Positions 7,963 to 57,965 of a stretch of 64,000 nucleotides of DNA are shown in pieces. The stretch comes from Hydrolagus affinis. Lineage: Eukaryota. Location of the stretch: contig JAAILG010000117.1 of NCBI GenBank assembly GCA_012026655.1, positions 1 through 64,000 on the forward strand, read 5' to 3'. Made by a program: the position numbers and the translations under genes. The stretch's first letter is position 1. Each line of letters starts with the position of its first letter. Below the pieces are notes generated by a model. It made no database searches. It was not told the DNA's origin and saw only the letters and a program-made list of their open reading frames with translations.

Positions 7963-8397
7963 TGGAGTTCCTGTAGCTCAGTGGTTAGAGCACTCGCCTC
8001 ACAAGTTTGAGACCTGTATTTGAATCCAGGCAAATCAGGGTGAAACCACGGGCAAGTTTCCTTACTCCGCACGCCTAATAATAATCCGTCCAAAAAAATA
8101 AATAAAAATTGGTCATTTTCAATCCACAACAGTGGGACACTGCTGTGCGCAATTGGCTGCCACATTTCGCCCACTAATATAAAATAAATAATAAATAATC
8201 CTTGCATTTGATACAGCTCTTTCCACATCTTATCAACGTCCCAAAGTGCTTCACAGAATATACTGTAAGGTGAATTGACTGTATATATTTGTGGGCGAAT
8301 ATACAGTCAATTCACTCTACAGTATATTCTCTGAAGCACTTTGAGAGGTTGATAAGATGTGAAAAGCGCTATATCAAATGTAAGGATTATTATTATA
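7963..8397 (+). mobile_element. Full tRNA-derived SINE with an internal inverted copy of its own 3' end
   Basis: A-box-like tagctcagtggttagagc and B-box-like ttgaatcc, body, inverted tail at 8185-8298, then normal tail. Confidence 0.85.
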
Positions 8398-54609: not shown

Positions 54610-54795
54610 AAAAAGTTCATAATTTGGTCACTCAATCCACGACTGTTTGTGGGGACACTGCTGTGCGCAATTGGCTGCCGCGTTTCGACCACAAAATATC
54701 CAGTCAATTCCCTTTACAGTACATTCCGTGAAGCTCTTCGAGACGCCTGGAAGTCGTGAACAACGTTAATACCAAACGCAAAGGATTATTATTAA
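54610..54795 (+). mobile_element. tRNA-derived SINE, 3' half, CpG-rich
   Basis: Family body and tail about 640 bp upstream of the kinase ATG. Confidence 0.8.
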
Positions 54796-54989: not shown

Positions 54990-55434
54990 GAGTGAGTAAC
55001 TGTGTGTGTGTGTGTCTCTCTCTCTCTCTCTCATTTCCTCTGACTGTGTTTTCCGGGTTCTGCTTCTTGCCTGTGGATGGGGCGCTTCCTGTGTTTGTGA
55101 GCAGCTGGGAGCTCAGCCAGTTTAACAAGAGCAGACAAGCAACAAGTCAAGTCACTCACTCACTTACTCACTCTCACTTCCCCCCTCCCTCCCTCTCTCT
55201 CTCTCTGCTCTGACAGCACCGCTATGATTCCAAACCCCTGACTGGTGTTCAAGGCAAAACACACACACATACACATACACACACAAAGATTTCCAGTGGC
55301 TTTGCTTTGAAACAACATCTCTTCTCACCCCCCACCCCACCACCTCCTTTATATTTTTATATCATAGGGGGTGTGAGAAAAAAAAGTGGACTCACACACA
55401 CACACACAGAGAGACAGACAGACACACGCTAAAA
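54990..55434 (+). promoter_or_regulatory. Probable proximal promoter / 5' UTR of the kinase gene
   Basis: Directly upstream of the ATG; (TG)/(TC)/(CA) tracts, CT-rich stretch, CTTCCTG ETS-like and CAGCTG E-box motifs at about 55085-55107. TSS not determinable. Confidence 0.45.
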
Positions 55435-55491
55435 ATGGCAAAGGACTTTCCTGCTAAAAGTCTGGACAAGATTGATCTCTCTTGTTTGCGG
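55435..55491 (+). CDS. NRK: GCK-IV STE20 kinase (MAP4K4/TNIK/MINK1/NRK family), first coding exon; NRK by synteny
   Basis: aaaATGG Kozak context; 57 nt MAKDFPAKSLDKIDLSCLR|gtgagt, compare MAP4K4 MANDSPAKSLVDIDLSSLR. Family call is strong; the symbol rests on tandem position after IL1RAPL2. Missed by the ORF track. Confidence 0.8.
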
Positions 55492-56265
55492 GTGAGTGGC
55501 TTGTTTTTTAAACCCAGACTGGTTTACACAGTACAGTGTATACTGTAGGACAGTTATTTTGGGGGTCGTCTGAAACTCGATGCTGACTTCGGTTTGAAGT
55601 CTCGAATTCGTCCAAAGTTTCTGCTCTGCTCTGTGTGTGTGTGTGTGTGCGTCTCTCTGTCTGTCTGTTTGTGTGTGTGAGTGTGTTTTCTTCTTACAGT
55701 GCAAACTTTAGCAGCTGCAGTCGCCGATCAGTTGTGAATGGATCAGATTTTTGAGCTAGCGGATGGTTAGAGAGAGTCAAGTTTTATCTACAGTAAAGTA
55801 CAGCACAGCGGTGCCTATCAATAGCCCACATTTGCAGAGAGCAGACCAGAAGTCTTCAAAAGGCTCACTGACTCTTGTCTAACACTCTGAAACTCCTTCT
55901 TCAAGCAAGATTCGTTCTTAAGACAGTCGAGGGTCTTATTCCTCAGCATTATTCTGAAGTGGTCGCCAGACAACTCATTAAACCACAAATTCAGCAAAAT
56001 AAAATTACAATTCCAGCGAAAACTATCATAAGGGAGAAGTAAGTCAATGTTTAAGACATGCAGATGTAATGAAGTCAACCGGTGCCAATGTTTGCAGCTA
56101 AAGTTTCACTTCAGCCACATGGCACTAGGAAGTGTATTAACATTGAATTTAAAGGGACTTGTTTGCTTTTGATGTACGTTGGGAGGGAGGGGTTTGTTTC
56201 CTATAAGGGTGATGGGTTGTTGGGTGAGGGGGGGGGGGGTGTCTTTGCTATAGAAATGAAAATGA

Positions 56266-56478
<213 letters not shown>

Positions 56479-56734
56479 TAAAATCAATATTTCTAAGTTG
56501 TCACCCATTTCTTTTAAAACTTGCGGTATTTCATAACTGTGTTCCTTAATAATGAACCCATATACATATATGTATGCGCGTTTGTATATGTCTGTGTGGG
56601 TGGGCGGGGGGGGGTATTTTCCAGTAACTAGAAATTCATCTCAGATATTGCGAAAATTCTATTCACATATGATATATTTCTGCAGCAAAGTTTGGTTGGA
56701 TTGATGGAAATTCCTCCAGGATTCCTTAAGCAGC

Positions 56735-57040
56735 ACAAATTTCACCCCAACAATGCTTTCATTGAACAGAAAAACAGAAATCACTGGGAACACTCAGCAG
56801 GTCAGGCAGCATCTATGGAGAAAGGAAAGTGAGTCAACGTTTCGGGTCCACAACCCTTTGTCAGAACCGGTGAAATGGACCCAAAATGTTGACTCACTTT
56901 CCTTTCTCCATAGATGCTGCCTGACCTGCTGAGCGTTCCCAATGATTTCTGTTTTTCTGTTCAATGAAAGCATTGTTGGAGTGAAATTTGTTCTGTTTTC
57001 GTTTCAGATTTCCAGCATCTGCAGTATTTTGCATTTTTGT
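56735..57040. mobile_element. Penelope-type palindromic element with 116-bp arms and a decayed hammerhead core
   Basis: Arms 56735-56850 and 56876-56991, 111/116 complementary; minus strand CTGACAA-A-GGGT-tgtgg-ACCC-GAAAC-GTT; followed by cagatttccagcatctgcag. Confidence 0.8.
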
Positions 57041-57774
57041 TGATGTTTCCATGAGTCGTGTATGATACATATATATAGTATAATGTTTATCTTTATATAT
57101 AATGTTAGACTTTTAATAACTGTAAAAGTTGAAATTGCACTAAAGGACTGTATAATTGGTCTATCATTTTTGGAACCTGAGGATTATAGATCTTCTCCTA
57201 TGCCTGTCGGTGATCTCTGTTATATAGTACATAGAACAAGTCTGGACATATTCAGGTCACTTCCTAGTAGGGAAAGGCCTATGGTACAGAACTGCGCCTA
57301 ATTGGTAATCTCACTTAGTGACACTTCAAACATTGTCTGATAAGGAAATTCTTAGAAGGTACAGTGAGGACGCTCTTCGGAGTTTGTTTCAATCAAAGAT
57401 TCAAGTGGGTCTTTCTGTTCTGTGTGATTCACAAAGCAAATTTGTCGATGCTCACTAACTGCTATCTTACCACCAGTGATAAGAATGGTGAATTTGTCCC
57501 AGTGTGCTTCAGAATGTCTGTAAGATAATTTTAATTGCATTATGAATGTGGAATTAAATGCTACATGTAAAATTGTGGTTAACTTCACTGTGGTTATTTA
57601 TTAGTGCACGGTGAGAAGTTCAAAAAAACAGAACAAACTACTGAGCAGTGTAGCAGGTGGCCCACTTCAACTAATTCTCTAAGTTGAGGAGCCAGAATAT
57701 AGGGTGCTTTACTCTGGACATGAGCTAGTAGTGCTCCGGTGTTAGCATCCATCATCTTGATGAGCACAGGGGTT

Positions 57775-57965
57775 AATAATAATAAGAATCCTTGCATTTG
57801 ATATAGCGCTTTTCACATCTTATCGACGTCCCAAAGCGCTTCACAGAATAAATTGTAAAGTGAATTCACTGTATTTGTGGGCGAATTGCGGCAGCCAATT
57901 GTGCACAGCAGTGTCCCACAAACAGTTGTGGATTGAAATGATCAATTTTATTATTATGTTTTTTT
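57775..57965 (-). mobile_element. tRNA-derived SINE, 3' half
   Basis: Very similar to the 3' half of 26897-27243. Confidence 0.88.

Follow-up and report, generated by a model that had tools for sequence, protein, structure and literature searches.

The window, the whole 64,000-nt stretch of Hydrolagus affinis DNA analysed here, carries two coding exons of a host kinase gene on the plus strand. Coding exon 1 (55435–55491; MAKDFPAKSLDKIDLSCLR, then GT) is followed by the 22-aa coding exon 2 (56314–56379), after which a 23-kb intron 2 separates the latter from exon 3 near contig position ~79,630. A Pfam search with the 22-aa exon 2 gave no match. A downstream kinase exon has its best match in MAP4K4 (E 3e-21), then in MINK1 and TNIK and, judged by sequence similarity, the host gene is a MAP4K4-family kinase. 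A compound CA/GA/GACA microsatellite (55381–55430) and its near mirror image (55639–55695; 38 nt, 84% complementary) flank coding exon 1 and its splice donor, while inverted copies of an abundant short repeat (54632–54695 and 57874–57936) lie 3.2 kb apart with exons 1 and 2 between them. A further inverted pair is found at 57776–57812/58748–58784. Additionally, the window holds a second palindrome at 8188–8396 (~210 nt, 86% self-complementary), built from another abundant repeat.

The hairpin studied here starts 355 nt after the end of exon 2 (56379), in intron 2 counting coding exons, where the preliminary description had placed it. Its arms (56735–56850 and 56876–56991) pair at 111 of 116 positions around a loop of 25 nt, and all five mismatches (56746/56980, 56784/56942, 56792/56934, 56839/56887 and 56843/56883) are transitions. 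Comparison of the arms thus reproduced the arm length, pairing, mismatch type and loop reported in that description, and its minus-strand reading across the loop (CUGACAA...GAAAC-GUU) matches the sequence. The fold that it proposed as a check gave −221.9 kcal/mol for the minus strand of the hairpin (z −26.6), far more stable than shuffled sequences, none of which equalled it (0 of 200).

The left arm contains an inverted, tail-less copy of the pseudo-LTR (pLTR) end of a Penelope-like element, or PLE (56765–56867, minus strand; its left edge is uncertain, from 56765 to 56770). Filler unrelated to the family occupies the centre (56869–56875, plus strand) and is followed by a direct copy of the pLTR end (56876–56956, plus strand), which carries G12A and is without the 5' half of the hammerhead described below. 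After an insert of 44 nt, the element resumes with the end of the arm and a one-sided PLE 'tail' of ~34 nt (57001–57038, plus strand), as such tails are outlined in PMC8557442 and PMC11167929.

To define the parent element, we searched its own genome and obtained 3,470 candidate copies, of which 40 were scored; these all span query positions 71–257 and occur on both strands. An exact motif from the middle of the arm occurs 3,374 times in the genome. The aligned copies share a common plan of flank, inverted tail-less arm, variable centre, direct arm, ~34-nt tail and flank. Among 30 copies chosen by the arm/tail motif alone, blind to symmetry, 14 have an inverted arm upstream. The palindromic shape is therefore the usual form of the parent repeat and not special in this genome. 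Indeed, ~80 bp in each arm correspond to the head-to-head, inverted-copy form in which this abundant PLE ordinarily occurs, so that ~80 of the 116 bp require no special event.

Longer copies, continuous with the arm, extend upstream into a broken reading frame that encodes a C-terminal GIY-YIG endonuclease, the motif of which includes two cysteines. These frames bear out the Penelope-type origin first proposed for the hairpin. In one copy (L074) the endonuclease matched Pfam PF01541 at 24.1 bits (cut-off 22.6); this was the single fragment of five to score, Pfam having missed the other four PLE fragments. Another copy (L077) has broken frames with a YIDD motif upstream, in which Pfam gave no match for reverse transcriptase. 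The family also has a CX4CxxC linker, read as CQCRRCTTC in L078 and decayed in L062 and L063. A CX2-5CxxC motif between reverse transcriptase and endonuclease is given in PMC8557442 as defining PLEs of the Neptune/Nematis type. By its sequence motifs the family is an endonuclease-bearing PLE, of the Neptune/Nematis type going by the linker.

The hairpin has the 5' truncation, adjoining inverted copy and tail of 30–40 nt on one side only that are reported as common in PLEs (PMC8557442, PMC3846280). Target duplication is described as not obligatory for these elements (PMC3846280). Additionally, in PAc, a Poseidon element of Anolis, the tail lies between two start sites of reverse transcription (PMC11167929), and the mechanism that generates PLE inverted copies is called undefined in PMC8557442. 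Aligned to its family, the hairpin proves to be what is left of a 5'-truncated copy of an abundant PLE with an endonuclease, a non-coding stub in the usual form of inverted copy plus tail.

Several other properties of the family were recorded from its junctions. Across L003–L059, target duplications are mostly 10–15 nt and start directly after the T run of the tail, and left arms mostly end at the 5' edge of the hammerhead. In L086 and L087 a non-majority CpG base at the arm end (GCC for GCG) is common to both arms, as either a subfamily marker or arm-to-arm conversion would leave it. Most inserts in the middle of the arm (L096–L107) duplicate a short stretch of the element in tandem.

On the minus strand, the left arm and loop contain a minimal type-I hammerhead motif (56832–56868; features as in PMC4209133), with C3 at 56864, an A in place of G8 at 56859 and an extra A at 56857. 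Stem II is formed by 56856–56852/56848–56844, with one C>U wobble, and GAAAC-GUU lies at 56843–56836. The family consensus, taken as the majority columns of 125 arm copies, has CUGANGA, an additional base following A9, G10.1-C11.1, GAAA, a palindromic 15.2–16.2 and a stem I of 4–5 bp, features that PMC4209133 lists for minimal type-I hammerheads in metazoan PLEs. The hairpin's motif departs from this at the conserved G8 of the C3-G8 pair; thus a minimal hammerhead with G8A, as in the preliminary description, is what the locus holds. At position 8, 63 of 121 copies have G and 45 have A, and among 50 pattern-matched cores 18 have A8 and five are fully intact. Read from these copies, G8A in the hairpin is ordinary CpG decay. 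All core boxes are kept in L048:1552–1584, L062:1839–1871, L065:1847–1879, L067:1845–1877 and L079:1808–1840.

We predict that the hairpin's hammerhead is inactive, because of G8A, because it is present as a single copy and because it is buried in a long stem. G8C is reported to abolish cleavage in PAc (PMC11167929) and a single minimal motif gave no cleavage in PMC4209133. BLAST of 56600–57100 found no other family copy in the window, and a second copy in tandem would be required for a dimeric stem III. Covariance models of Rfam gave no hammerhead match here, nor on an intact family copy used as a positive control; the models are therefore blind to this minimal type and their result is uninformative. 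The motif is antisense to the kinase gene, and the sense arm holds the 3' half of the hammerhead only. Since the motif is on the opposite strand, the pre-mRNA would not contain it.

What sets this copy apart is the 44 nt between arm and tail (56957–57000), missing from all 27 aligned copies. The first 35 nt (56957–56991, plus strand) are an inverted copy of 56735–56769, identical at 34 of 35 positions, and the sequence then re-enters the element at 56991–57000 (plus strand), duplicating 9 nt found at 56947–56955. The outer left arm (56735–56764, plus strand) is single-copy sequence that recurs elsewhere just once, inverted at 56962–56991: a genome-wide search with this 30-mer at up to 3 mismatches gave two matches, both in the hairpin. 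We presume that 56735–56764 is host flank; since no empty site was seen, this reading rests on single-copy status. An outer ~30 bp specific to the locus, and its complement breaking into the right arm immediately ahead of the point where the element continues, had both been proposed beforehand; the single-locus 30-mer and the copy alignment agree with these two proposals. Pairing also continues at 5 of 7 positions just outside the arms. There, an 8-nt patch at the outer junction (56728–56735, plus strand) pairs at 6 of 8 positions with 56991–56998 (P ~0.02 for the 5 of 7 beyond the arm end, calculated post hoc), and likely represents micro-homeology that would have guided a switch.

To determine how unusual this arrangement is, we compared it with the rest of the family. 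Complementarity beyond the arm end extends for 39 nt here, whereas in none of the 31 other palindromic copies compared does it exceed 7 nt. A fixed-anchor scan, which covers the ~1,190 copies whose anchors are unmutated, found normal arm/tail spacing in 1,181 and an insert of 5–66 nt in seven. Among these seven boundary inserts, an inverted copy of flank is found in this hairpin alone, and neither the six other boundary inserts nor 13 mid-arm inserts include a second example. An apparent inverted match in L083 was rejected as a second case, being another abundant repeat. We also rejected the arm/tail boundary as a hot spot for inserts (7/1,181 versus 13/3,374 mid-arm; Fisher p 0.44). One other boundary insert, L082:1501–1569 (minus strand numbering), has 8 nt identical to its own target duplication, in direct orientation, and re-enters the element at the same TTCTGTTT motif; it is a possible second case of local capture.

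Palindromes are prone to assembly errors and to fold-back during library preparation, and no long read of this hairpin was seen. An artefact of either kind is nevertheless exceedingly improbable. The arms differ at five positions, one of them in the outer part. Additionally, in a related genome, organism A, contigs from two studies span 56950–57400, insert included. The divergence between organism A and the window is ~1.7% (16 of 936 nt; X1), and because organism A carries the insert, the insert is real and older than that split; this largely refutes an artefact. The left and right contigs of organism A stop at mirror-image points, 30 nt beyond the 56746/56980 mismatch, and the hairpin's centre is not crossed with certainty in any independent record. 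For organism B, the end of the left contig (56797) was dropped as a sign that the insert is absent: it fits both states, since organism B has a change of its own at 56753 and the arm mismatches are then separated by just 30 identical bases.

We then asked how far the arms have diverged from each other and from the consensus. Arm identity (77/81) is the highest of 32 copies, the next being 77/82, with a mean of 87% over 35 rows, four of which are second orientations left out of later counts; most comparators (26 of 31) had been picked as best matches to the window. Outside CpG sites the left arm has no change from the consensus and the right arm has two, none shared. One CpG change is common to both arms; 32 of 124 copies are altered at that site. 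The hairpin has non-CpG changes at 2 of 150 positions versus 5.8% in other copies (Poisson P 0.008), and its unpaired tail is likewise unchanged (0/30 versus 66/927 elsewhere). Among the copies compared, this one is closest to the consensus, and both arms appear to be simply close to the source element. The preliminary description had attributed the stem to a fold-back switch that lengthened and homogenised it. The switch itself stands, as inferred from geometry, while its role in building or homogenising the stem does not: no non-CpG change is shared and the tail is equally conserved. With no non-CpG change in the left arm to share, the homogenisation test has low power. There was no sign of fixed A-to-G hyper-editing, with one T>C among the five right-arm changes.

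The geometry of the insert, an inverted copy of nearby sequence followed by return to the original strand, is that of a template switch and makes it very probable that fold-back synthesis was the cause. A newly made DNA strand would have folded back on itself, copied through the left arm, continued for 35 nt into host flank and returned to the element at the 6/8 micro-homeology, most likely during integration itself. A reversed course, in which the right arm first acquired a 35-nt foreign piece and outward copying of it then replaced the left flank together with the target duplication, is improbable. It would account for the missing target duplication, and a 9-nt direct repeat does bracket the insert. 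However, the genome offers no other source for the piece, the left junction pairs with that repeat at 6/8 positions only, and two rare events would be required.

Sequence alone cannot separate fold-back during integration from a later switch in replication, which leaves the same geometry. The target duplication of this copy is not detectable (score 5.0, null mean 5.1), whereas the score exceeds the 95th percentile of the null in 18 of 31 other copies. In addition, the central filler, taken as 56869–56876, is the reverse complement of flank 56739–56746, within the captured patch; this is an 8-nt match noticed post hoc, and 95 of 13,943 41-nt windows match as well. No filler derived from own flank rose above background in 11 other copies. 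An undetectable target duplication together with filler from the same flank patch leans towards one fold-back episode at integration. Against this timing, the other 13 of the 31 copies are also without a significant target duplication, the boundary is not an insert hot spot and, in L1, inverted-duplication outcomes are reported to keep the target duplication (bioRxiv 10.1101/2024.12.14.628481). Granted fold-back synthesis, we consider integration the more probable time.

The main competitor, less probable though well short of unlikely, is normal integration followed by a template switch within the palindrome already present, during replication or repair of a cruciform break, that copied 35 nt of flank. 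This is the course of the preliminary description, with homogenisation no longer required. It predicts the identical geometry, the 9-nt re-entry duplication and the 6/8 micro-homeology; template-switch mutations are described as creating and extending hairpins (PMC10710096); inserts are not enriched at the arm/tail boundary; and a weak 8/10 target-duplication candidate (ATGCTTTCAT/ATGTTTCCAT) is present at about the expected place. A switch alone does not explain an undetectable target duplication in a near-consensus copy, though, and filler from the same patch would require one multi-step repair episode. Moreover, with no non-CpG change in the left arm, nothing suggests that time passed between insertion and switch, and the arms differ to a similar degree in their outer (1/35) and inner (2/75, non-CpG) parts. 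On balance, we favour a PLE stub with flank copied by one fold-back episode, most likely at integration.

Intron RNA is predicted to form a duplex of ~116 bp; in the sense transcript, four of its mismatches would be of the A-C type and the fifth a G-U. Within long duplexes, ADAR favours A-C mismatches. Many other copies in the genome are predicted to form similar duplexes of ~80 bp, with no function implied. A search for records holding the sequence listed none from RNA. The location in an intron, in sense, the top arm identity (77/81) and the few non-CpG changes would suit a selected RNA element of the kinase gene, such as an editing substrate, small-RNA precursor or splicing modulator. This is very unlikely: the unpaired tail is as unchanged as the arms, there is no compensatory change, CpG decay is at its usual level, Rfam miRNA matches are below gathering scores, and the hairpin was chosen for near-perfect pairing in the first place. 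By these sequence measures, nothing points to a function, and the hairpin appears to be a neutral scar left by insertion, in a family of thousands of copies. For the kinase gene, the insert adds ~35 bp to a type of duplex already expected in many introns.

The value of the locus lies in its rare junction, as flank copied into the second arm is the expected trace of snap-back synthesis. The hairpin may, tentatively, be a fossil of head-to-head formation in PLEs, in which the first cDNA would snap back, prime copying of the second arm, overshoot into host sequence and only then join the tail-primed strand; we regard this specific reading as rather doubtful. If true, the self-priming model for the inverted repeats of PLEs would gain evidence from sequence, although one case in ~1,190 cannot settle how PLEs form inverted copies. 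None of the papers listed by a literature search concerned host flank copied within an inverted PLE insertion, although such junctions may appear in supplements.

The closest parallels are Pen2/Pen2a of Adineta (PMC3846280; scheme in PMC8557442), which similarly combine a 5'-truncated direct copy, an adjacent inverted copy and a one-sided tail of 30–40 nt, and in which most copies have a target duplication and some have none (PMC3846280). Self-priming was proposed there for the inverted junction (PMC3846280). The hairpin differs in that just ~100 nt of the pLTR end is left and in its inverted flank between arm and tail, a feature that we did not find among those described for Pen2/Pen2a (PMC3846280, PMC8557442). 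In PAc (PMC11167929), two start sites would give inverted arms that start at the inner edge of the tail, as they do in the hairpin's family; unlike Penelope/Poseidon, this family has the CX4CxxC linker. The motif resembles the minimal type-I hammerheads of PMC4209133 in its core boxes, the extra nucleotide between 9 and 10.1, G10.1-C11.1, the palindromic 15.2–16.2 and a short stem I. In contrast to those hammerheads as reported, it carries G8A, is a single copy, is antisense to a host gene and is sequestered in a long stem.

With respect to the insert itself, template-switch mutations (PMC10710096) share the one-step inverted copy of nearby sequence and the return to the original template, acting here, in contrast to the cases described, on a palindrome born of a retroelement. 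Inverted duplications of flank at L1 integration sites (bioRxiv 10.1101/2024.12.14.628481) resemble the proposed fold-back in that a self-annealed 3' end primes copying of local DNA as the retrotransposon integrates. L1 is another class of element, however; as described in that preprint, its duplication is found next to the insert, with the target duplication retained, whereas here the copied flank is inside the element and no target duplication is detectable. Set against these systems, the insert is a real, one-off variant of a known insertion form, probably arising by a known kind of slip.
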